A stretch of DNA of 63,047 nt, the filler included, from Basidiobolus ranarum (taxonomy: Eukaryota): NCBI GenBank assembly GCA_040143965.1. It is 47 parts of 47 records of this genome, joined end to end, with 100 filler letters (N's around TTAATTAATTAA, not from the genome) between each part and the next. Parts side by side here need not be neighbours in the genome. Positions count along the whole stretch, not along the records: positions 20,205 to 21,449 come from JASJQH010012713.1; 46 more parts are not named here. One strand, given 5' to 3'. Positions 2,600 through 63,047 of the stretch are shown one piece after another. Every line of letters starts with the position of its first letter. Position 1 is the first letter of the stretch. A program made the position numbers and the translations under genes. The notes beneath the pieces were generated by a model. The model ran no database searches. It was not told the DNA's origin and saw nothing but the letters and a program-made list of their open reading frames with translations.

Positions 2600-2699
2600 N
2601 NNNNNNNNNNNNNNNNNNNNNNNNNNNNNNNNNNNNNNNNNNNTTAATTAATTAANNNNNNNNNNNNNNNNNNNNNNNNNNNNNNNNNNNNNNNNNNNN

Positions 2700-3317
2700 T
2701 CCTCTTGCTAAATAAGATATTAATTCGATTACTACTAGTAAAGGTACTAAACCTAAAGGAGTTCCTGCTGGTATGAAGTAGCTAAAGAATGCTAATTTAT
2801 GTCTTTGTAGACCTAAAATAGTTACTCCTATTAAAATAGCTATACTAAAACTAAATGTTAATGCCATATGAGAAGTAGGAGTAAAGCTATAAGGAACCAT
2901 TCCTAATAAATTTGAGAATAGAATAAAGTTAAATAAAGCAAATATAAATGGTAAGTATTGCTCATTTACTGGACCGTTTCCTATTTGATCTCTTACTAAT
3001 GAATGTACTGAGCTATAAGCTGATTCTTGAAAGATTGAGCTTTTACTTGCTAATACTTTTCTTTGGCTAGCAGTAAAATAAGCTATAGCTAAAAAGATTG
3101 AACTTGCTATAATTATTTGTAAACCTATGTTAGTTATTACCGATATCTCTGAAGATAATCCAAAGATAGGTGCAGATATTGTTAATAAATCGTAAATTTC
3201 AAATTGCTCTAATGGATTTAAAATGGGTGCACTCACCGGTGCGATATTCATGGGGCTTCCGAAGGCTACGCTTGGAAATAAAGGGGCCATCATAGAAGAA
3301 TGTAGGTTCAATTGCAT
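2700..3317 (-). CDS. atp6: Mitochondrial-type ATP synthase subunit a, 3'-truncated
   Basis: NPLEQF, NLLGMVPYSFTPTSH, PAGTPLGLVPLLVVIELISYLAR; AT-rich codons; exact start uncertain. Confidence 0.95.
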
Positions 3318-3374
3318 TTTTAGGTTTGGTTGCGGGGCAACTTTCGTTAATTAACTTTCCTTTTTTTATTCTTG

Positions 3375-3948
3375 ATTGGGTGGTGTGCCGGCCCCCCTGC
3401 TTGGGGGGCCCCCGCAGCCCGTGCTTCGCCGGACTAGGGCCCCCGGGGGCCCCTTCGCCCAACCCCCCCCCCAAAGGGGGGGGCGGGGGGGGGGTGGGCC
3501 CCCCCCCGGGGGGCCCCCCCCCCCCCCCGAGCAGTGCTTCGCAGGGGAGAGTGACTTTAAAAAACGCCTACCCGCCGAAGGGGGTCCCCTCTTTTCTCTT
3601 TAAATGCCAATGGTGCGCTATCCGATCCCCGGCTTTACCTGACTGCCCGGGGGAGGAGGGGGGCCTTTCCCCCCTCCGTAAGAGCCCCACACCCGCCCCC
3701 CCCCCTGCCCCCCCCCCTCCGGGGAAGCCCTGGATGGGTGCCCCCACCTCCCCCCTAATCCCTACGGACTCCAAAGGGGAAGCACGGGGGGGGGGGCGGG
3801 TGTGGCCCCTCCCCGATCCCTTCCCCCCCCCGACCCGTTTGCCCTTTTACCCCCAACGCCCCCCCTTCAAGGGGGGGGGCGTTGCCCGGGGAAGGATCAG
3901 GGTCGGGGGCCCCCCCCCCGAAGGGCGGGGGGGGGGCCGACGGGGCGT
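3375..3948. repeat. GC-cluster / hairpin-element array upstream of atp6
   Basis: Paired G and C runs, e.g. palindrome AGGGCCCCCGGGGGCCCT at 3436-3453; recurrent CTTCG/CGAAG. Confidence 0.75.
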
Positions 3949-4048
3949 NNNNNNNNNNNNNNNNNNNNNNNNNNNNNNNNNNNNNNNNNNNNTTAATTAA
4001 TTAANNNNNNNNNNNNNNNNNNNNNNNNNNNNNNNNNNNNNNNNNNNN

Positions 4049-5006: not shown

Positions 5007-5297
5007 TGTTGGATAATTAATCTTTAATCAACTTCTTAGTTAACTTTAGATATGATACATATATAAGAAACAGAAAGCAACGTATCTATAGCCCCTATAT
5101 TCTAAATAGGTATATCTCTATATCTATATAACAAGTATGTCTTATTACCCCCACTTATCTATTATGTTTTATTACACAAACTCCTCAATATCTCAAACAA
5201 TTGATTTACTTTTCTACTATATAAGGCACCATATACTCTTAAGAATAAACTAACTAAAACACACTATCATAAGTTGCTTCTAATACTCAAAGTCTAC
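5007..5297 (+). mobile_element. Copia LTR family B
   Basis: TGTTGGATAATTAATCTTT..., same as the LTR after the PPT at 62823. Confidence 0.85.
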
Positions 5298-9127: not shown

Positions 9128-9207
9128 TGTTGGATAATTAATCTTTATTCAATATCTTAGTTAACTTTAGTTATGATACATATACCAGAAGTAGAAAGCA
9201 ATGTATC
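9128..9207 (+). mobile_element. LTR B 5' part, interrupted by LTR E
   Basis: TGTTGGATAATTAATC...GCAATGTATC. Confidence 0.8.
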
Positions 9208-9339
9208 TGTTGAAAGTCTGGTGACTTGCGGTACAAGCAGTAATTCCCAAAGAGGAAAATATGGAGTATGGTGACTGCATCTGAACACAAAGTCTAAGGC
9301 TAATCAGTTGCTTGTATAGCTGAAATGCCAAAGTACCAT
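9208..9339 (+). mobile_element. LTR family E, 5' part (cut by contig end)
   Basis: TGTTGAAAGTCTGGTGACTTG..., near-identical to 21025 onward. Confidence 0.9.
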
Positions 9340-9439
9340 NNNNNNNNNNNNNNNNNNNNNNNNNNNNNNNNNNNNNNNNNNNNTTAATTAATTAANNNNN
9401 NNNNNNNNNNNNNNNNNNNNNNNNNNNNNNNNNNNNNNN

Positions 9440-10575
9440 GTGCTTGACAGTTATTGCTTCTTCAACCATGGTAGAAGCTTCATCTCTTTTGACTGGCCGT
9501 GACCGTGGTTGCATGGCAGTACGTGTTGGAGCAAGTTGTCTACCTTGTGGTTTGTGTTTGGCAGTTCTTGCCTCTTCAACCACGGTAGAAGCTTCATCTC
9601 TTTTGACTGGCCATGGCCGGGATCACATGGCAGTATGTGTTGGAGTGAGTCTTCTACCTTGTGGTTGTGTTCTGTGGTTCTTGCTTCTTCAACCATAGTG
9701 GAAGCTTCATCTCTTTTGACTGGCCATTGCCATGGTTGCATTCCAGTACATGTTGGAGCAAGTTGTATACCTTGAGGCTTGTGTTTGGCAGTTCTTGCCT
9801 CTTCAACCACGGTAGAAGCTTCATCTCTTTTGACTGGCTGCCATGATTTCTGTTGCATGGCAGAATGCATTGGAGCATATTGTCTACCTCAAGGTTTGTG
9901 TTTGACTGTTGTGGCTTCTTCAAGCTCAGTAAGAGCTTCACTATCTCTTGCAAACACTTGTTGTCTTGGTCTTGTGAGGGTACGCATAGTAGTGGATTGC
10001 TGTCTTAGTAGATTGCTCTCAGGTGTCAGATCTTCATCCAACAAAGTGGAAGGTTCAATAATTCTTGCGGTTGGCCTTTGTTGCTGTTGCGTGGTTGTAT
10101 GTGTTAAACCGCTCCTTGGAGCTGACTCTTCTCCAGATGTAAAAAGCTCACTGGTTGGTTTGGTTGAATCAGGTAAATTGCGCACTACAATGCATGAATA
10201 TGCAGGCCATCCTCTTTCTGGTTCTTCATTGACTGCTTGCTCTTCATCAAAAACGGGAGAAACATCACGGACTCTTCCAAGCTGGCATTGCTGTCAATGA
10301 GTACTACTAGCTGATGAACCAACTTTTTGGGCTCTTGCCCTTGTTGAAGGTGTTACCTCAATTCTAGTGGTGAGTTGTGTAGATTCTTCTTGTGAAATAG
10401 ATACCTCATCAGGAGTCTCTTTGATTTGGAGTGATCTAGTACATCTCTGCAATGGTCTAGATGGCTCCAATTTGCCTTCACAAATATCTTCTGATTCAAT
10501 AAATTGTCTTGCTTTTCTCTTTACACCTCTGTTGATTACTCTTGCCATAGTGTCCAGAAATGTTGTTTTGAACTC
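9440..10575 (-). repeat. Multicopy coding-like sequence with about 114-bp (38-aa) tandem repeats, degenerate
   Basis: Anchor GTAGAAGCTT-like at 9471, 9585, 9698, 9812, 9929; homologous to 13479-14330. Confidence 0.85.
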
Positions 10576-13378: not shown

Positions 13379-13478
13379 NNNNNNNNNNNNNNNNNNNNNN
13401 NNNNNNNNNNNNNNNNNNNNNNTTAATTAATTAANNNNNNNNNNNNNNNNNNNNNNNNNNNNNNNNNNNNNNNNNNNN

Positions 13479-14724
13479 ATGTGTTGGAGCAAGTCGTATA
13501 CCTTGAGGTTTGCGTTTGGCAGTTCTTGCCTCTTCAACCACGGTAGAAGCTTCATCACTTTTGGCTGGGTGCCGTGACCTCTGTTTCATGGCGGAACGTG
13601 TCAAAGCATATTGTCTACCTTGAGGTTCATGTTCAACTATTGTGGCTTCTTCAAGCTCAGTAAGAGCTTTACTATCTCTCTCAAACACCTGTTGTCTTGG
13701 TCTTGTGGGGGTACATGTTGTAACAGATTGCTGTCTTAGTAGATTGCTCTCAGGTGTCAGATCTTCATCCAACAAAGTGGAAGGTTCAATAATTCTTGCG
13801 GTTGGCCTTTGTTGCTGTTGCGCAGTTGTACGTATTAAACCAGTATGTCTTTCTGGTGGCACGCTCCTTGGAGCTGACTCTTCTCCAGATGTAAAAAGCT
13901 CACTGGTTGGTTTGGTTGAATCAGGTAAATTGTGCGCTACAATGCATGAGAATGTGGGCTGTCCTCTTTCTGGTTCTTCATCAACTGCTTGCTCTTCATC
14001 AAAAACGGGAGAAACATCACGGACTCTTCCAAGCTGGCATTGCTGTCAATGTGTACTACTAGCTGATGAACCAACTTGTTGGGCTCTTGCCCTTGTTGGA
14101 GGTGTTACCTCAATTCTAGTGGTGAGTTGTGTAGATTCTTCTTGTGAAATAGATACCTTGTTGGGAGTCTCTTTGATTGGGGTGATCTAGTATGTCTCTG
14201 CCCCAGTCTAGGCTGCTCCAATTTGCCTTTGGGAATATCTTCTGATTCAATAAATTGTCTTGCTTTTCTCTTTACACCTCTGTTGATTACTCTTGCCATA
14301 GTGTCCTGAAATGTTGTTTTGAACTCTGCAACCTCCATCAACAGTTGCTGCAAAGTCTCATTGAGCAGTGGTAGATATCTATTTAGAACATCTTTTGTCT
14401 CTAAAGTTGAGGCCGCAATGGTCACTTCCAGTCCATACAAGCAAAAACACAATTGGAATTGTGTCTTTGCGGACTCAAAATTAAAATTCCTATTTCTCAA
14501 TTCACGCTTTCTATCCTCATGAGTCTTATTGTATATTTTCTTGCAGACTTCTGAAGGCATGAAGATATAGTATTCTCTCCAAAGCAGAGTTAAAAGTTGC
14601 TTCCACTTTTGTCTAATGCCCCCTTCCCCAGCTTCTGTCAAGTTTATCAATAACTCCCATATATCCAAGCAAGAATTCAAAGTGGATACGTGGGCATCAG
14701 TAAATTCATTAGGAATGTGCTGCT
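13479..14724 (-). repeat. Second copy of the 38-aa-repeat ORF family, including its upstream helical region
   Basis: High identity to 9760-10575; 191-aa open stretch 14105-14680. Confidence 0.8.
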
Positions 14725-20104: not shown

Positions 20105-21024
20105 NNNNNNNNNNNNNNNNNNNNNNNNNNNNNNNNNNNNNNNNNNNNTTAATTAATTAANNNNNNNNNNNNNNNNNNNNNNNNNNNNNNNNNNNNNNNN
20201 NNNNAAGGAGAACAAACTATCATTTGATAATCTGGAATCAAGCAGCTATGTGAGTAGTGAAACATTAGGCAACACTGGAAATGCACAAATTTATACCAGA
20301 AATCCTGATAATTACTCTGAGTGTACTGAAAATTTGGAAACAGCTTCTGGAAATCAGCATTTTATCTCTGCCAATGAAGAATATGGTAGTCAGAAAAAGG
20401 ATATTTTTCCAGCCAATGAGGAATCAGGAAGTTGGGCTCAGAAACATGCTAATAATTTTTCACCAATGATGTACCAAAGATATATCCTACTCTCAATATG
20501 GCTGATATTGGATACAATCAACTATTGGAAGTATGTAATTAACAACAAAATTCAGGCAATCAGGTCTCAGAAATCCTATCAAGTGGAAATTAGAAACATC
20601 CTGTAAGTGAAATATCTGAACATTCTACCAAGGACTTTGGATGTCTCAAATCAAAGCATGAAATCAACAGATTAAATTCAGAAAATAGATGGAATATATC
20701 TGTACATATAGCATTTTCTGAACCAGAAAATTTGACACAAGCTCTGAAATCTGATGATGCAACAGAATGGAGAAAAGCCACTGATGATGAATTTCACTCC
20801 CTAATCAAGAATAACACATGGATCCTTGTGGACTTATCTATTGGAAGAAAAAATATTGATAATCAATGGATGCTGAAACTGAAAATTAACTTCAATGGAT
20901 CTAATAACCAGTGCAAAGCAAGATTAGTAGTTAAAGACTATGCTCAAAAATATGGCATTGACTATTATGAAACATTTTCTCTGATTGCTAAGTTTACCTT
21001 AATCAGAGCAATCCTAGCTATTGC

Positions 21025-21306
21025 TGTTGAAAGTCTGGTGACTTGTGGTACAAGCAGTAATTCCCAAAGAGGAAAATATGGAGTATGGTTAATACATCTG
21101 AGCACAAAGTCTAAGGCCAATCAGTTGCTTGTATCACTGAAATGCCAAAGTACCATTCATTGACAGACTAGGTTAAGGTTCCCTAGCAATATAGGCATAG
21201 TATACAAGGACTGGTAGCTCAGTGGTTAGAGCACCTTGCTAGAGTGAAGGAGGCCCCAGGTTCAAATCCTGGCAAGACCAATATTTCTCCCTAAATAATT
21301 TCAATA
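21025..21306 (+). mobile_element. Solo LTR family E (282 bp) with TSD ATTGC
   Basis: TGTTGAAA...TTTCAATA, flanked by ATTGC at 21020-21024 and 21307-21311. Confidence 0.92.
21208..21280 (+). ncRNA. tRNA-derived sequence inside LTR E (pseudo-tRNA with Pol III A and B boxes)
   Basis: 73-nt cloverleaf spacing; D stem GCTC/GAGC and T stem CCAGG/CCTGG perfect; A box TAGCTCAGTGG, B box GGTTCAAATCC; two acceptor-stem mismatches. Confidence 0.9.
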
Positions 21307-21549
21307 ATTGCTACCCACCAAGGAATGCTGATTTAACAAATTGGATGTCAAGACAGCATTTCTTAATGGAGAAATTGATGAACATATATACATGGATCAA
21401 CCAGAGAGATATATTGCAAAAGGATAAAAACATCAAGTATGCAAGCTATNNNNNNNNNNNNNNNNNNNNNNNNNNNNNNNNNNNNNNNNNNNNTTAATTA
21501 ATTAANNNNNNNNNNNNNNNNNNNNNNNNNNNNNNNNNNNNNNNNNNNN

Positions 21550-22040
21550 GTATCTATAGCCCCTATATTCTAAATAGGAATATCTCTATATCTATATAAT
21601 AAGTATGTCTTATTACCCCCACTTATCTATTATATCTTATTACACAAACTCCTGAATATCCCAAACAACTGATTTACTTTTCTACTATATAAGTCATCAT
21701 ATACTCTTAAGAATAAAGTAACTAAAACACACTATCATAAGTTGCTTCTGATACACAAAGTCTACCCCCATTTTGTCAAGATCCTCCAACAGTTTTGTCA
21801 AGATGTTAGCAAACTAATGTGTAGAATGTGCTAAAGAAGGTCCCAGGAACATGTGTGCAAAGTTTGGGGCTTCTAGTATAAGTTTGAAAAATTTATATAT
21901 CTGAGAACTTCTAAGTTGGTGTTAATATTTTAAGTAGATTTCAATTGAGAAATATGGATAATATCTTAGTGAATTATAAGATAACCAAGTACTAAGCTAT
22001 ATATGACTAAATAGGTGCTTAGGCAATGCTAATTTCCACA
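21550..22040. mobile_element. LTR B 3' part (to 21791) nested in a reverse LTR A
   Basis: ...GATCCTCCAACA then reverse complement of LTR A. Confidence 0.85.
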
Positions 22041-24237: not shown

Positions 24238-25481
24238 TAAACTTTTTTAGTATATCTGGGATATACTTAGACTAGTTTAAAGTTATTGTTTTGGTAGTTC
24301 TATCTATCTTAACTTGAATTCCAAGATAATATGTCAGTTCACCAAGATCAGGGATTTTGAATTTGGCAAATAAGCTGAATTTGGTTTTCTCTAAAGTCTT
24401 CAAGTCATTAGTTACAGTAATAATGTCATGTACATACAAGGCTAGTGAAGCTGGGTTTGTCTTAACTGGCCTGAAGAAGAAAATATAGTCAGCATTACTC
24501 TTTTGGAATTTGAGTGTTTGCAAAACAGCATCTATCTTGCTCTTCCAAGCTCTTGGAGATTGTTTAAAGCCACTGATTGTTTTGCAGACTGTGCAAACTT
24601 TTTTGCGGTTTTCTGGATGACCAAATCCATCTGGCTGGCCTATATATATCTTCTCAACAAGCTTGCCATTCAAAATATAAGTTTTTCATCCATTTGAAGT
24701 ATCATAAGCTGATATATAGCAGAATTTGCTAAAATCAATCTAATTGAATTAAACTTTGCTTCAGGAGCAAAAGTTTCTGTATAATCTATTCCTGGTGTTT
24801 GAGAATAGCCTTTGGCCATTAGTCTAGCTTTGTACCTTTCTATATTGCCTTTAGGGTTATATTCAACTTTAGAGACCCATTGGCAGCCAATTGATTTTCC
24901 ATTGTCAGGTAAGTTGGTTGAAATCCAAATTTGATTATCAACCAAAGCCTTGTACCCATCAGCCATTTCAGATCTCCAAATTTTGTGCAAGGGCCATTTA
25001 GGACCTCTTTTAAAGTCTGGGGTTCATGTAATTGAGCTGTACAGGCATAGGCCCAATTTTGGGACTTGTTGATATAGTAATCAGAGCTATTTCTGATCTG
25101 ATCTGATCTCATTGTTTGGGATAAAGGTACTACAACTTCTGGTACTATCTTAGGCACTTCAGTAGACAAAGTTTTGGTTGATGGGTCCACAGGAATGCTA
25201 ATTTTGTCATTTTTTTGGTATACATCAGTTTGAATGATTGGATCCGGAGAAAACTGGACTTGTTCTCTGTGATAGTGCCAGATTGTGCTGTATATTTCAT
25301 ATTGGATAAATTATTCTAAAATTTATGCGGCACAATTTGGCACTATCCAGCACCCTCTGGCATAATCAATTTCAATCACACTTACTCTAATATATTGATC
25401 CAAGGTCCAATAAATCCTGGCACAATGGAACAAGTCCAGTGAGCTTTGTTGTCATCTGAGGTCGTTAGGGTAGAAGATTTT
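24238..25481 (-). mobile_element. Ty1/copia RT fragment with MITE insertion
   Basis: KARLMAKGYSQTPGIDYTETFAP; homologous to 6745-7400. Confidence 0.9.
25256..25437. mobile_element. 182-bp MITE, TIR GGACTTGTTC
   Basis: GGACTTGTTC...GAACAAGTCC, flanks ACT/AGT; second copy at 50113-50294. Confidence 0.85.
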
Positions 25482-30855: not shown

Positions 30856-30955
30856 NNNNNNNNNNNNNNNNNNNNNNNNNNNNNNNNNNNNNNNNNNNNT
30901 TAATTAATTAANNNNNNNNNNNNNNNNNNNNNNNNNNNNNNNNNNNNNNNNNNNN

Positions 30956-31378
30956 GTAAAGCGTAGTGAAGACGATGATGGTGATGAAGATGATGATGAC
31001 AACGACGATGAAGGTGACGATGAGGGAGACGACGACGACGATGATGATGATGAGGGCAACGACGATGAAGATGATGAGGGTGACGACGATGAAGATGATG
31101 AAGGCGACGACGATGAAGATGATAAGGGCGATGACAATGAAGATGATGATGAGGGCGACGATGATGATCATAGTAATGGTGACCATGCAGATAAAGGTTC
31201 CCCTCAACCAAAGAGCTCAGATGAGTCAAAAGTTCCTGGTCCTCAATCTGGTGCCCCCGCTAGTGATGTTAAAAGCACACTCACCTCTAAAGCGAGTGAA
31301 GGAGTCTCAAAAGGGCCTAAATCAGACCAAACCAAAGGTCATAGCCTAAGAAGACGGTTCCTACTTAGAGGTTTCTAG
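30956..31378 (+). CDS. C-terminus of an Asp/Glu-rich protein
   Basis: 141-codon open frame VKRSEDDDGDEDDD...SLRRRFLLRGF*. Confidence 0.7.
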   Translation, partial: VKRSEDDDGDEDDDDNDDEGDDEGDDDDDDDDEGNDDEDDEGDDDEDDEGDDDEDDKGDDNEDDDEGDDDDHSNGDHADKGSPQPKSSDESKVPGPQSGAPASDVKSTLTSKASEGVSKGPKSDQTKGHSLRRRFLLRGF

Positions 31379-37669: not shown

Positions 37670-38649
37670 GCTGTAAGCCTAAGATTATATTGCTAAAGCG
37701 GATCAGATGGAACAACAGCTTCCCATTAGGCACCATGCGCTTACTATTCAACAACATTCCAATACTACTTACTCAGCTATATTGTGGAAAATTCAATATG
37801 AAAGAGCCAATCAGGATAGGATTGTAGTTTGAATCAATTGGGAAAATGCTTGAAAACATCAAGATACTATCATATTTTACCAGGACTCCCATCAATATCC
37901 ACTCATCTAGGCATTTATTCAAATGAAAAGACTAGAAGTATTGGATTTGTATATATTCAAGTGGAATGTTGAAACAATTTCTGCCTGATAAGTATCGGTA
38001 TAATATATTCTCATGGCATCAACTCACATTTGCAGATATCAGGCAGATACAGCAACTATGCAGAGATTTTGTCAATGGATATGAAAAACTTTATTTCAGG
38101 TTTAAAAAAGATAGACTGAATCTATGCCAGTATTCAATACATTCCCTGCTACATCTTTCACAACGCTTAGAGATTATAGGCCCTTGCTATACATTCTGGG
38201 AATTCCCAATGGAGTGCACCTGCGGTGAAATGATGCTCCATGTCAAATTGTCAGCATTACCATATGCTAATCAGATTAACAGTGTGTCTGCTAAATCAGT
38301 GATGGATGTAATGCAATGGGTTAAGGAGACTTCAGAGTATCTTAACCTGCCTACAAAGGGCTCTTTTCAATGTGCTCATGGGTTTTTGCATTGTTTGAGC
38401 ACAATAACACCTACAAAGCCCAATCCATGGACACAGAGTAAGTACCTCTATAATTAGACTAATTTGCTTGTGTGATAATCTGATGGTATTTTTAGGAAAG
38501 CTGCAAGACAGACTTCTTGGTAAGATAGATCAAGATATGCAGTATTATTGTTTTAGCCATGGGGTAAACTATTCCAGCAATAACATATCTACTTGTTACC
38601 AGACATTTGTTGACTGTAAGTTGAGGATATATTGGCAGAATTCTTTATT
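37670..38649 (+). mobile_element. CMC/EnSpm-type transposase, C-terminal half, degenerate
   Basis: IHSLLHL...GPCYTFWEFPME resembles the CACTA HxLxH / WxFPxER region. Confidence 0.8.
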
Positions 38650-49744: not shown

Positions 49745-50985
49745 TGAAAAGAGCCCTTTGTTGGCAGGTTAATATACTCTGGAGTCTCCTTAACCCATTG
49801 CATTACATCCATCACTGATTTTGCTGATACATTGTTGATCAGATTAGCATATGGTAATACTGACGATTTCACATGGAGCATCATTTCACCGCAGGTGCGC
49901 TCCATTGGGAACTCCCAGAATGTATAGCAAGGGCCTATAATCTCAAAGCATTGCAAAAAATGCAGCAGGGAATGTATTGAATACCAGCATAGATTCAGTC
50001 TATCTTCTTAAAACCAGTAATAAAGTTGATCATATCCAATTACAACATGTTTGCACAGTTGCTGTATCTGCCGGAGATCTGCCAGTGTGAGTTGATGCCG
50101 TAAGAATATATTGGACTTGTTCCATTGTGCCAGGATTTATTGGACCTTGGATCAATATATTAGAGTAAATGTGATTGAAATTGATTATGCCAGAGGGTGA
50201 TGGATAGTGCCAAATTGTGCCGCATAAATTTTAGAATACTTTATCCAATATGATATATACAGCACAATCTGGCACTATCACAGAGAACAATTCCATTAAC
50301 AATATCCACAAACAACTCCCAATGTTGCCAATACTTATCTGGCAGAAATCTTTTCAAAATTCCACTTGAATATATACAAATCCAATACTTCCAGTCTTTG
50401 AATTTGAATAAATGCCTAGATGAGTGGATATTGATGGGAGTCCCAGTAAAATATGATGGTATCTTGACATTTTCAAGCATTTTCCTAATCAATTCAAACT
50501 TTGATCCTATCTCAAATGGCTCATTCATATGGAATTTTCCACTGTATAGCTGAGTAAGTAGTGTCGGAATGTTGTTTAATAGTAAGTCCATGGTGCCTAA
50601 TGGGAAGCTCTGGCTCCAGCTGATCCCCTTTAGCAATATAATCTTAGGCTAACGGCTAATACCAAGTTTGATGTAAGACTGACTATTTGGTGAATTGATA
50701 TCAGCAATCATGTTGAAATCTGACCGGGCTCTTGACTGTAAAATCATGGAGTTTCTGTTGTATTTGGATAGTAGTAATGTGTATGCCTGTTAGAGTAAAC
50801 TCCATTGATTTGAAAACATCTACAGCAAGACAGTGCATTGTGCCCGTGAAAACCTCCAAGTTTGCTGATGGCAGGAGTGTCACCAATACATACAACAATA
50901 TTAGCTTTAATAAAATATTCACCCATCTGTACCCCATTAGATAACCGTTCAAGTTCCAGAATCAGAGGCTCCAAGAAGATATCTA
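49745..50985 (-). mobile_element. CMC transposase core with MITE insertion
   Basis: GDTPAISKLGGFHGHNALSCCRC, FWEFPMERTCG. Confidence 0.85.
50113..50294. mobile_element. 182-bp MITE with 3-bp TSD ATT
   Basis: Removing it restores the transposase frame DIVN|IFLRHQ. Confidence 0.9.
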
Positions 50986-53379: not shown

Positions 53380-53667
53380 CTAAACGCCTAATTCTTCAAG
53401 ATCTTTAAGCATATGATTGGGACCAGAGATTTTGTAGCTTGATGGTCCAGGTTCCTCGATGTTGAGAACTTTGACAACTCCATCATCGACATACATACTG
53501 TATCGCAAGGATCTCACTCCCAATCCAGGCATTACCTGAGTCAATCCAATCCTTTTGTGGAATGAGCAGTCACCATCAGATATAACCTCTACTTTATCCT
53601 TGATGTCATAGTTTTGTGACCAAGCGCGCATCACAAATGGATCATTTACAGCGGTACAGTAGATGGC
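53380..53667 (-). CDS. Prx5/AHP1-type peroxiredoxin, C-terminus
   Basis: AVNDPFVMRAW, ISDG, LGVRSLRYSMYVDDGVVKVLNIE. Confidence 0.92.
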   Translation of the reverse strand, partial: AIYCTAVNDPFVMRAWSQNYDIKDKVEVISDGDCSFHKRIGLTQVMPGLGVRSLRYSMYVDDGVVKVLNIEEPGPSSYKISGPNHMLKDLEELGV

Positions 53668-57530: not shown

Positions 57531-57689
57531 ATGACTGCATCTGAACACAAAGTCTAAGGCCAATCAGTTGCTTGTAAAGCTGAAATGCCAAAGTACCATC
57601 CATTGACAGACTAGGTTAGGTTCCCTAGCAAAATAGCCATATCATAAAAGGACTGGTAGCTCAGTGGTTAGAGCACCTTGCTAGAGTGA
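57531..57689 (+). mobile_element. LTR E-related copy with tRNA-like cassette from 57650 (cut by contig end)
   Basis: Matches about 21088-21247; the 40 visible nt of the cassette are identical. Confidence 0.9.
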
Positions 57690-57789
57690 NNNNNNNNNNN
57701 NNNNNNNNNNNNNNNNNNNNNNNNNNNNNNNNNTTAATTAATTAANNNNNNNNNNNNNNNNNNNNNNNNNNNNNNNNNNNNNNNNNNNN

Positions 57790-60369: not shown

Positions 60370-60469
60370 NNNNNNNNNNNNNNNNNNNNNNNNNNNNNNN
60401 NNNNNNNNNNNNNTTAATTAATTAANNNNNNNNNNNNNNNNNNNNNNNNNNNNNNNNNNNNNNNNNNNN

Positions 60470-61708
60470 AATGGCAGGAGTGTCACCAATACATACAATG
60501 ATATCAGCTTTAATAAAATATTCACCCATCTGAACCCCATTAGATAACCATTCAAATTTGGCAATCAAAGGTTCCAAGATGTTATCTATAAGTACTGGTG
60601 ATTTAGGTCCAGATATGATAGATACTATCAGAATATTAGGACTCTTACACTGTTCAGAAGGAGAAAGATTCAAGTGAATTAAAATTATTGGCCAGCAAGC
60701 CTTTCCAATGGTAAATTTACTTAATAAGAAGCCATCCAGAGCCAATGCAAACACATGATCATGTATGTTCTCAAAGAAACCATGACTTTTCAGATTCTGG
60801 TAGTGATATCTATCATGTACATTAGTAATACCATTATCCTTAAGGTGAGTAAGTTAGTATTGGATAAATGATCTACATTTGCGTGATTTCATCAAAACTT
60901 TAAGATGGAGAATCAATGAAATGTAAGCCAAATCCCAAACAAAAATAATACAATTTGATATGGATTGGATCCACCCTCCAAAACAGCAAAACCATCAGAG
61001 AACCATCACAATATTGGTGGCTTGCATTCTGCCAGGGATTTTGATGGTGTGACGGCAGTTTCTTGATGGTATTTAGATAGTATTTATACATGTTAAAATA
61101 TGATTCCTCAAAATTGGCATGCATTATTCAATATCCAGCAATTTTTGCAAAAATCTAATTTTTGAATTACAAATTATTGGGTTTACTGCTGTAGAAATTT
61201 GAATTAATATGAATGCCTGTATCAAGATATTTTAGGCTTTCTATTCTAGCCATAATGCGAATCAAAAAATACCAGAATCTCACTGTGTTTAGTCTCTGCA
61301 TATGCACAGACTTGACTGCTCATACATAACTCAACAACATCAATATGCTTTACCAGCAAACTAAAGGTAGAAAAATTGATAAACATCTGAAATCTTGAAT
61401 TGCACTGACACTTGGCAAATAGCTGACTCATGCTACTGTTCACAATGAGAATAAGCTCTTAAATTTTGGAAATTTCTGTAATGAATTCAGCCAATATATC
61501 CCTGACTTGAAGTCAACAAATATCCTGCCACAAATAGATGTGTCATTGCTTGAATAGATTACCCCATGGCTAATACAACAATACTATTGGGAAACTATGG
61601 GCTGTTTGGAGGAACTTTAGAAAAGTGGAGTTGTGAATAGCTTTGTGAGAAAATTATTTATTGTCCAGAAATAAAGCATTTATACATTTGGTGGAAATAC
61701 AGAAAACT
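60470..61708 (-). mobile_element. CMC transposase (Tnp2-like domain) interrupted by a second CMC right end (60934-61584), then LTR C (from 61585)
   Basis: LALDGF...CWPIILIHLNLSP...ISGPK...LEPLI. Confidence 0.85.
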
Positions 61709-61808: not shown

Positions 61809-63047
61809 TTAATTGCTCTCATGTTGATGATATCATAATAGTTAGTAATTGCTCAAATCTGATGAAACAAACTAAAACCTGGCTATCTACCAAGTTTGAT
61901 ATGCAAGATCTTGGATCACTAGCATATTGTCTTGGAATGCAGATACATCAAAATTCCACTATTGGAACACTCCATATTATACAAGAAAAATATATTGGAG
62001 ATGTTTTAAAAAGATTTAATATGTCAGAATGTAAAACATCTTTAAATCCACTGTGTATGCTGAAACTCACTAAGGATATGGAACCAAAGACCTCTGAAGA
62101 TATTGAAATCATGGAACATATTTCTTACTGTAGTGCAGTTGGAAGTCTCATATATGTAACAACTGGTACTAGGCCTGATATTGCTACAGCAATAAGTATA
62201 GTAAGCATGTATATAGAGAATCCTGCAATGGAACATTGAATAGCTGTGAAACAGATAATATGCTATCTGAAAGGAACAATATATCATGGAATTCAATTTA
62301 GTAAGCAGTACAACATGTCACTTATTTTGGGAGGATATGCTGATGCAGACTGGCCTAATGATACCAAAGACCATAAGTCCAGAACTGGATATGTGTTCAA
62401 GCTAGCAGGTGGGCCAATAAGCTGGATTAGTAAGAAACAACAAACAGTTGCATTATCAACTACAGAAGCAGAATATATGGCAAGCTCTATGGCTGTTCAA
62501 GAAGCTATATGGCTAAGGAGTTATCTCAAGGAACTAGGATATGATCAAGTTAATCCTACCCCAATATATCAAGATAATATTAATTGTATTCAGATCACCA
62601 AAAATCCTGAGCATCACTCAAGGATGAAGCATATTGACATAAGACATCATTTTATACAAGAGAAATTCAAGACAAAGAAGTGAACTTTATTTATTGTATT
62701 ACTGAAAACATGCTTGCAGATATACTAACAAAACCACTTAAAACTTCAAGCTTTGAGAAGTTAAGAGCAGGCATAGGCATTAGTGAATATAAGCACAATG
62801 CTGAACAAGAATTAAGGGAAGGTGTTGGATAATTAATCTTTATTCAAAATCTTAGTTGACTTTAGTTATGATACATATATCAGAAACAGAAAGGAATGTA
62901 TCTATAGTCCCTATATTCTAAATAGGAATATCTCTGTATCTATATAACAAGTATGTCTTATTACCCCCACTTATCTATTATATCTTATTACACAAACTCC
63001 TGAATATCTCAAACAATTGATTTACTTTTCTACTATATAAATCACCA
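61809..63047 (+). mobile_element. Copia RT-RNase H, PPT and LTR B (from 62823)
   Basis: GYADADW, VALSTTEAEY, KHIDIRHHF, PPT TTAAGGGAAGG. Confidence 0.95.

Follow-up and report, generated by a model that had tools for sequence, protein, structure and literature searches.

Cassandra is a plant-only TRIM that carries a copy of the 5S rRNA gene in each of its LTRs (Kalendar et al. 2008, as cited in PMC10886601). Ajax, as described in the main text of the latter paper, is likewise a TRIM; the 5S rRNA sequence that it carries is partial, and it is known from two nemertean worms (PMC10886601). A third group, named Helenus by Kojima 2024 (PMC10886601), comprises TRIMs with tRNA-derived sequence in their LTRs. 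According to the main text of that paper, Helenus is found as 113 families in the Pucciniales, and also in Agaricus, Coprinopsis and Amylostereum, in animals including bivalves, and in Selaginella (PMC10886601). The structure given there is that of two LTRs around a short PBS-PPT internal part, the whole being less than ~1-1.3 kb and without coding capacity, with LTRs of up to 323 bp (PMC10886601). The fungal elements are described as making 5-bp duplications and as occurring frequently as solo LTRs, with copia as their likely mobiliser (PMC10886601). Their boxes conserve TRGCY/YGG (A) and GGTTC (B), and a credible tRNA is usually not encoded (PMC10886601, section 3.5). In rust genomes, hundreds of predicted tRNA genes are shown in the main text to be Helenus LTRs, and most of the inflated predictions of 'tRNA-Ser-AGA', 'tRNA-Thr-AGT' and the like are attributed to Helenus (PMC10886601). 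The same text proposes an age of ~130 million years for the Helenus of the Pucciniales, and Kojima states that Pol III transcription of Helenus is unvalidated in general (PMC10886601).

Basidiobolus is placed in a phylum of its own, the Basidiobolomycota (NCBI taxonomy). Its lineage diverged early among fungi and is distant from those rusts and mushrooms that are known to host Helenus. Here, we describe a 282-bp element at 21025-21306 of a stretch of Basidiobolus DNA of 63,047 bases, the whole of which we refer to as the window. The element is a mobile, multi-copy unit that was inserted into a copia reverse transcriptase (RT) with a 5-bp duplication, and within it lies a tRNA-derived sequence whose A and B boxes are intact. 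We propose, with a probability of roughly 60%, that a Helenus-like family in Basidiobolus, presumably of TRIMs with a tRNA-derived Pol III promoter ('TRIMp3'), left 21025-21306 as a solo LTR.

Results

Composition of the window

The window consists of ~47 separate contigs of ~1.25 kb each, which become progressively shorter along its length. The contigs are joined by spacers of the form N44-TTAATTAATTAA-N44, visible as 92 N-blocks of 44 bases that are paired around the linker. The spacers are not bridged by sequence, and past the spacer at 9339 we found nothing related to the remaining part of the LTR that is cut there. Given this lack of continuity, we treated each piece as a separate short contig. 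All evidence at the level of the family, meaning the copies and their sharing of the cassette, is drawn from the window alone, of which ~59 kb is readable.

The G+C content of the window is 36%, and fragments of copia and gypsy elements are abundant throughout. The window also contains a peroxiredoxin fragment (53380-53667, minus strand) that is identical at 94/95 residues to 'peroxiredoxin type-2 [Basidiobolus ranarum]' and 87% identical to a B. meristosporus protein, the next matches being to Glomeromycotina at 54-62%. The closest named relatives of a mitochondrial ATP6 fragment belong to the Conidiobolus group, at only 53-55%. A rust host, which the transposon content had suggested, was rejected on the peroxiredoxin match, and the ATP6 result agrees with this.

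A 282-bp element interrupts a copia reverse transcriptase

The complete copy of the element, hereafter copy B, occupies 282 bp of the plus strand (21025..21306) within a match to the RVT_2 family. Its first bases are TGTTGAAAGT and its last bases are AATTTCAATA. The termini, TGTTGAAA and TTTCAATA, are inverted repeats at 7/8 positions, and the similarity fades beyond them (9/14 by eye). The 3' end is TA, as compared with the canonical CA, and copy B is the single copy that shows this end. On either side stands the 5-bp sequence ATTGC, at 21020..21024 on the left and 21307..21311 on the right (both plus strand), and the two match perfectly. The base that follows the TSD, a T, is shared too, which makes the element boundary ambiguous by 1 bp.

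The sequence that received the insertion is a decayed copia RT (20672..21449, plus strand). The translation of 20594-21022 matched positions 1-70 of the Pfam RVT_2 profile (E 3.7e-13), and the match ends at the insertion. A tblastn search whose query was an RT on a different contig gave one match that runs to 21031 and a second that begins at 21338. Only after removal of 282+5 bases is the copia RT colinear across the joint, with the frame unchanged. The rejoined sequence ...AILAIA|THQGMLI*Q then aligns residue by residue with ...TVLAVV|AKHSLKIHQ of an intact RT. Because colinearity is restored by removing exactly these bases, we conclude that the 5-bp duplication is real and is not a chance match at boundaries picked by eye. 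The duplication could be checked in one of the three copies that we found, copy B, where it is 5 bp. The RT also has a separate 1-base frameshift ~26 nt past the joint, as well as stop codons downstream of it, and thus the receiving copia was dead at the time of insertion or has died since. The original prediction, made from the sequence alone, had called both a 282-bp element with a perfect ATTGC duplication and a copia RT split by it, and both calls hold.

The element contains a tRNA-like cassette with intact A and B boxes

Near its 3' end, copy B contains a tRNA-like sequence of 73 nt (21208..21280, plus strand), which corresponds to positions 184-256 of the 282-bp element. ARAGORN called this sequence as tRNA-Ser(aga), and the Rfam tRNA model RF00005 scored it at 52.9 bits against a threshold of 29 (E 1.5e-08). 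The LTR part 5' of the cassette is 183 bp long (21025..21207, plus strand), would be U3 under the LTR replication scheme, and ends in AT-rich, TATA-like bases directly upstream of the tRNA-like start. The part 3' of the cassette is 26 bp long (21281..21306, plus strand) and has neither an A-rich tail nor a run of at least four Ts. A regex scan identified an A box, TAGCTCAGTGG (21215..21225, plus strand), that fits TRGCY...YGG, and a B box, GGTTCAAATCC (21259..21269, plus strand), that contains GGTTC. The boxes are standard and correctly spaced, and 21208-21280 is the sole A+B box cassette and holds the sole B-box match in the window. In the Infernal alignment, the D and T stems are fully paired, two pairs of the acceptor stem are non-standard, and so is one pair of the anticodon stem. 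These analyses recovered the 73-nt tRNA-shaped sequence as it had been predicted, with intact boxes and D and T stems and with mismatches in the acceptor and anticodon stems.

The minimum-energy fold of the tRNA-like part is not a cloverleaf, and 129 of 200 shuffled sequences were at least as stable (z +0.52). Serine tRNAs have a long variable arm. The tRNA-like part has AGA at the anticodon position, yet it has no long variable arm. With its broken stem pairs, the mismatch between AGA and a short arm, and a fold at the level of shuffled sequence, the tRNA-like part is not a working tRNA. The combination of intact boxes with broken stems and a mismatched identity indicates that the features read by Pol III factors were kept, while those needed by a tRNA were lost.

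Runs of at least four Ts are absent from the whole 282 bases and from the 143 bases after the element, and no Pol III terminator that would set the R region is visible there. We considered this absence as a sign of selection and rejected the idea, as it is not significant: by our own estimate, about one such run is expected in 282 bases with this base composition. The window holds no free-standing copy of the cassette and no tRNA match other than the copies of the element.

Two further copies share the LTR

We searched the window for copies by BLAST and with a profile built from the copies (nhmmer). The element is present in three copies in the ~59 kb of readable sequence, and in the profile search the rest of the window was at noise level. 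The two copies other than copy B had been predicted at 9208 and 57531, and the searches placed them at 9208-9339 and ~57532-57689.

Copy A (9208..9339, plus strand) covers LTR positions 1-132, with 124/132 identical bases (94%), and breaks off where its contig ends. The insertion site is a copia LTR, and the duplication expected there is GTATC. In two paralogous copia LTRs (62823.. and 5007..), the sequence continues without a break across the site of copy A (...AATGTATC|T...). This second, independent insertion thus fixes the 5' end of the element, TGTTG. The copia LTR that hosts copy A begins with TGTTGG right after a purine tract (62808-22) and appears to end with ...CCAACA in a third contig, as read at a repeat boundary defined by BLAST. 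By their bases, the ends of the element, TGTTG...CAATA, look like the TGTTGG...CCAACA of this copia LTR from the same window, apart from a T in place of the last C in the one copy that shows the 3' end. A purine-rich run before copy A was examined as a candidate PPT and discarded, as the flank belongs to the host copia LTR, which the two uninterrupted paralogues also contain.

Copy C (57532..57689, plus strand) covers LTR positions ~65-221 by the profile; by BLAST, 57538-57689 matches positions 71-223 at 93% identity. It is truncated at the 5' side, where the first ~64 bases are missing, and at the 3' side it is cut by the contig end. The ~1.1 kb upstream is unique within the window and contains no ORF of interest and nothing recognisable. 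We also considered copy C as a 3' LTR, with ATTTCAATA at 57411-19 as the end of a 5' LTR before a PBS, and rejected this arrangement on finding no LTR similarity upstream of ~57530 by BLAST or profile. Similarity between the flanks of copies A and C was likewise dismissed, being at noise level only. No copy with two LTRs, and no PBS, PPT or internal region, was seen in the ~1.25-kb contigs of the window (nhmmer for copies). Outside the window, a degenerate tRNA-like pattern and an LTR-specific pattern gave 0 matches in viral and metagenome contig collections, and a phage collection had no match to the element.

The cassette was found in 2/2 copies that reach its region, whole in copy B and as its first 38 nt in copy C, copy A being cut before it; this is a very small sample. 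Over these 38 nt, copy C is identical to copy B (38/38), as compared with 105/119 identical bases in the LTR upstream of the cassette (one-sided Fisher p 0.017, for two copies only). This comparison of two copies hints that the cassette is the better-kept part of the LTR.

Discussion

Identity of the element

The 5-bp TSD, the short inverted ends of TG type, a 5' end that is fixed at two insertions, the lack of a tail and a promoter that lies 183 bp inside the unit together are the hallmark of an LTR that was inserted by an integrase, rather than that of a SINE or a MITE. Read as a complete non-autonomous DNA transposon (MITE), the element would have 8-bp imperfect TIRs and a 5-bp duplication; it is MITE-sized at 282 bp, and TGTTGAAA and TTTCAATA do match as inverted repeats at 7/8 positions. 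The inversion extends over only ~8 bp and then fades, however, and TG-type ends with a 5-bp duplication are the signature of an integrase, with such ends also present on a copia LTR of the same genome. To our knowledge, few DNA transposon superfamilies make 5-bp duplications, and these have different ends, which counts further against what we regard as an improbable reading. A slightly better case, though still an unlikely one, can be made for the cassette as a separate tRNA-derived SINE that landed in an older LTR. A recent landing would make it an independent SINE; an old one would correspond to the origin route that has been proposed for Helenus, since insertion of a SINE2 into a TRIM LTR is put forward as the birth of Helenus in the main text of Kojima 2024 (PMC10886601). 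A 6-bp repeat, TCCCTA, does flank the tRNA-like part, at 28 nt on its 5' side and 8 nt on its 3' side, but no more than chance is needed to explain it, since a shared 6-mer occurred in 1435 of 2000 shuffles, and the insert that it delimits begins 22 nt before the tRNA-like part, whereas a SINE would begin at its head. There is also no A-rich or simple-repeat tail after the cassette and no free-standing copy of it within the window, and the 119 nt upstream recur in copy C together with the cassette. The original prediction had named a TSD or tail belonging to the cassette itself as evidence that would speak against it; we found no A-rich tail, and the sole flanking repeat is the chance-level TCCCTA. 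Moreover, with the promoter 183 bp inside the unit, transcription of the SINE type could not pass the upstream 183 bases on to new copies. An LTR could carry them because, in the standard scheme of reverse transcription, U3 is rebuilt from the 3' LTR. Least probable of all, and by our assessment very close to discounted, is the reading of 21208-21280 as a true tRNA gene, or as a simple tRNA pseudogene, that happens to sit in repeated DNA. Such a gene would account for the Rfam score above the gathering threshold and for the ARAGORN call, but not for three broken stem pairs, an AGA anticodon unfit for a short variable arm, or a fold that is not a cloverleaf, and the sequence sits inside a bounded insertion with its own TSD and recurs with the same upstream LTR sequence.

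A more serious competitor, which we nevertheless consider a good deal less probable than a Helenus-like family, is that 21025-21306 is the solo LTR of an autonomous gag-pol element of copia or gypsy type. Such an element would be transcribed by Pol II, and the cassette would be a passenger, an accessory Pol III unit or an insulator. All of the evidence for an LTR fits this reading equally well, copia and gypsy fragments abound in the window, and the bases just upstream of the cassette are AT-rich and TATA-like. In addition, according to the main text of Kojima 2024, 'not a few' LTRs in Repbase have tRNA-like pieces, and only those with TRIM structure were named Helenus (PMC10886601). Against an autonomous element, 0/3 copies adjoin a coding sequence of their own: copy B is solo, copy A lies in the LTR of another element, and copy C follows ~1.1 kb without an ORF of interest. 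The A and B boxes are also without defect, the tRNA-like part seems, from the two copies compared, to be better preserved than the LTR around it, and there is no T run that would stop Pol III inside the LTR. We prefer the Helenus-like family, at the probability given above.

A model for transcription and mobilisation

If the element belongs to a Helenus-like family, the full element would have two such LTRs around a short PBS-PPT core. TFIIIC would bind the A and B boxes of the 5' LTR, and Pol III would start a few bases upstream of 21208, so that the cassette would serve as a promoter rather than as a working tRNA. The transcript would run through the remainder of the LTR, the PBS, the short core and the PPT into the 3' LTR. 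The absence of T runs from the 282 bases, though not significant, is compatible with such read-through by Pol III. All bases before the transcription start would behave as U3 and would be regenerated from the 3' LTR. Proteins of copia type would package, reverse-transcribe and integrate the RNA of the element in trans, and recombination between the two LTRs would then have left the solo LTR that we observe. Solo LTRs may each keep working as small Pol III units or as sites for TFIIIC, a speculation in line with the discussion in the main text of Kojima 2024 (PMC10886601).

Implications for fungal genomes

The original prediction was borne out in part. The TSD, the TG-type ends, the sharp 5' end at two insertions, the cassette in 2/2 copies and the fungal host all agree with its reading of the element as an LTR from a fungus in which a tRNA-derived Pol III cassette is built in. 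Its further proposal, of a probably non-autonomous element with the cassette as internal promoter or chromatin barrier, is a reasonable one and corresponds to a published class. Its claim of novelty, that such a family is not known from fungi, did not stand, as Helenus had been published with 113 families in rusts in the text of Kojima 2024 (PMC10886601). The kind of element is thus already described, mainly from rust fungi, and only the host lineage may be new. The main text of that paper contains no mention of Basidiobolus, Zoopagomycota, Mucoromycota or Entomophthor-, and the fungi of its Table 1 are Basidiomycota only (PMC10886601). Literature searches, judged by titles and abstracts, yielded no report of such an element in Basidiobolus.

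At the annotation level, elements of this kind inflate tRNA predictions, and both ARAGORN and Rfam call the present one. Flagging the family would clean the tRNA annotation of Basidiobolus genomes. If the element is what we propose, its solo LTRs would scatter A/B-box sites that bind TFIIIC through a repeat-rich genome. If a Helenus-like family exists in a fungus that does not belong to the Basidiomycota, the known host range of Pol III-driven LTR elements would become wider. A second lineage of fungi would then be at hand for asking whether such elements have a single origin or several, and which copia lineages act as their mobilisers. We suggest tentatively, at a little short of even odds, that Basidiobolus hosts a tRNA-promoter TRIM family of its own that was active until recently. 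Either LTRs with Pol III promoters would then be far older in fungi than ~130 million years, or they would have originated again independently through capture of a tRNA or a SINE head into a copia-dependent LTR. The Cassandra concept was reportedly published in 2008. No new kind of mechanism is added here, the concept having already been published for Cassandra and, as far as the main text shows, for Helenus and Ajax (2024, PMC10886601).

Comparison with known systems

By analogy, the element would resemble SINE2 in using tRNA-derived A and B boxes as an internal Pol III promoter. A SINE2, however, has a 5' tRNA head, a LINE-type tail and a variable TSD, whereas the Basidiobolus element has its cassette 183 bp from the 5' end, lacks a tail and has a TSD of 5 bp. 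Compared with a functional tRNA, which has a paired cloverleaf and a fitting anticodon, 21208-21280 has neither.

Like Cassandra, the element, presumably also a short one when complete, has in its LTR a copy of a small-RNA gene whose Pol III promoter is internal. In Cassandra, as cited in PMC10886601, transcription starts inside the LTR, and we propose the same for the Basidiobolus element. The two differ in that Cassandra has 5S, with a type 1 promoter, whereas the Basidiobolus element has a tRNA, with a type 2 promoter. Cassandra is also described, in the same text, as having a conserved Pol III terminator in its 5S part and an R region of 18 bp (PMC10886601), whereas no terminator is visible in the Basidiobolus element. 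With Ajax, a TRIM, the element shares a piece of a Pol III promoter in the LTR and a 5-bp duplication, but the piece is 5S rRNA in Ajax and tRNA-derived here. The original prediction had named Ajax as tRNA-bearing LTRs from molluscs, which was mistaken, since the main text gives Ajax as 5S-bearing and from nemerteans, and the tRNA-bearing group as Helenus (PMC10886601).

It is Helenus that the element resembles most closely, a likeness at the level of the published description, and one seen in single LTRs. Published fungal Helenus, in the main text and Table 1 of Kojima 2024, comes from Basidiomycota (PMC10886601), whereas the host here is Basidiobolus (Basidiobolomycota). Like Helenus, the element has in its LTR a tRNA-derived stretch with TRGCY..YGG and GGTTC, this tRNA is nonfunctional and gives a call of the 'tRNA-Ser-AGA' type, and the tRNA-like part is common to the family, in 2/2 copies. 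As in fungal Helenus, the TSD is 5 bp long, in the one copy that shows it, and the ends are short, inverted and of the TG..CA type, with TA at the 3' end. The element occurs as a solo LTR, and its 282 bp are within the reported range of lengths. Its ends are copia-like and its genome is rich in copia, as in fungal Helenus with a copia helper. Taken together, all testable features of this element fit the description of Helenus.

Composition of the window

The whole window consists of about 47 short contigs of about 1.25 kb each, chained by falling length. The joints between contigs are N44-TTAATTAATTAA-N44 spacers, for example at 9340-9439 and 57690-57789, and adjacency of neighbours across a spacer is without meaning. 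A repeat search of the window returned a family, D1, whose 109 "copies" are the spacers themselves.

Transposable elements

A copia LTR family of approximately 320 bp was found at 5007-5297, 62823-63047, 21550-21792 and 9128-9207. Its start, TGTTGGATAATT, lies immediately 3' of a purine tract (62808-22), with an RNase H-like ORF (62240-62683) upstream of both. The family contains a TATA-like CTATATAAG, and its 3' end appears to be ...CCAACA. One member is the insertion site of copy A, the second copy of the tRNA-bearing LTR.

We also detected a Transposase_21 (tnp2-type) fragment (60422-60805, minus strand) and two related-looking ORFs (37936-38457, plus strand; 50241-50648, minus strand). The two ORFs had no match in Pfam and share the motif KYWICIYSSG.LK.FLPDKY. 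All three look like pieces of a large DNA transposon family.

Other repeats and gene fragments

The repeat search identified tandem units of approximately 114 nt (family D8) at 9450-9955 and 13431-14190. These units sit within long ORFs on both strands, and another contig carries further copies of these ORFs that are 88-95% identical (D14, D16). We consider this a minisatellite-like repeated region that is possibly coding. A long coding-like, Asp/Glu-rich repeat with GAT/GAC/GAA-rich units of 9-15 nt each was observed at 30955-31188.

An 84-nt near-perfect hairpin is present at 25267-25350. Compared with plant microRNA families, it scored below threshold (mir-5429, 42.7 bits; gathering score, 80). 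The hairpin is probably not a microRNA but a small palindromic repeat or a MITE.

A peroxiredoxin fragment with a Redoxin domain (53380-53667, minus strand) matches a protein listed under Basidiobolus ranarum at 94/95 positions, which establishes the genus of the host. A G+C-rich stretch (3199-4000), which translates into long Pro/Gly runs on both strands, adjoins a fragment of subunit a of the mitochondrial ATP synthase (2652-3350, minus strand). A "tRNA-Phe(aaa)" called by ARAGORN at 3438-3517 was without Rfam support. The best named relatives of the subunit a fragment are from Conidiobolus-group species, at 53-55%.
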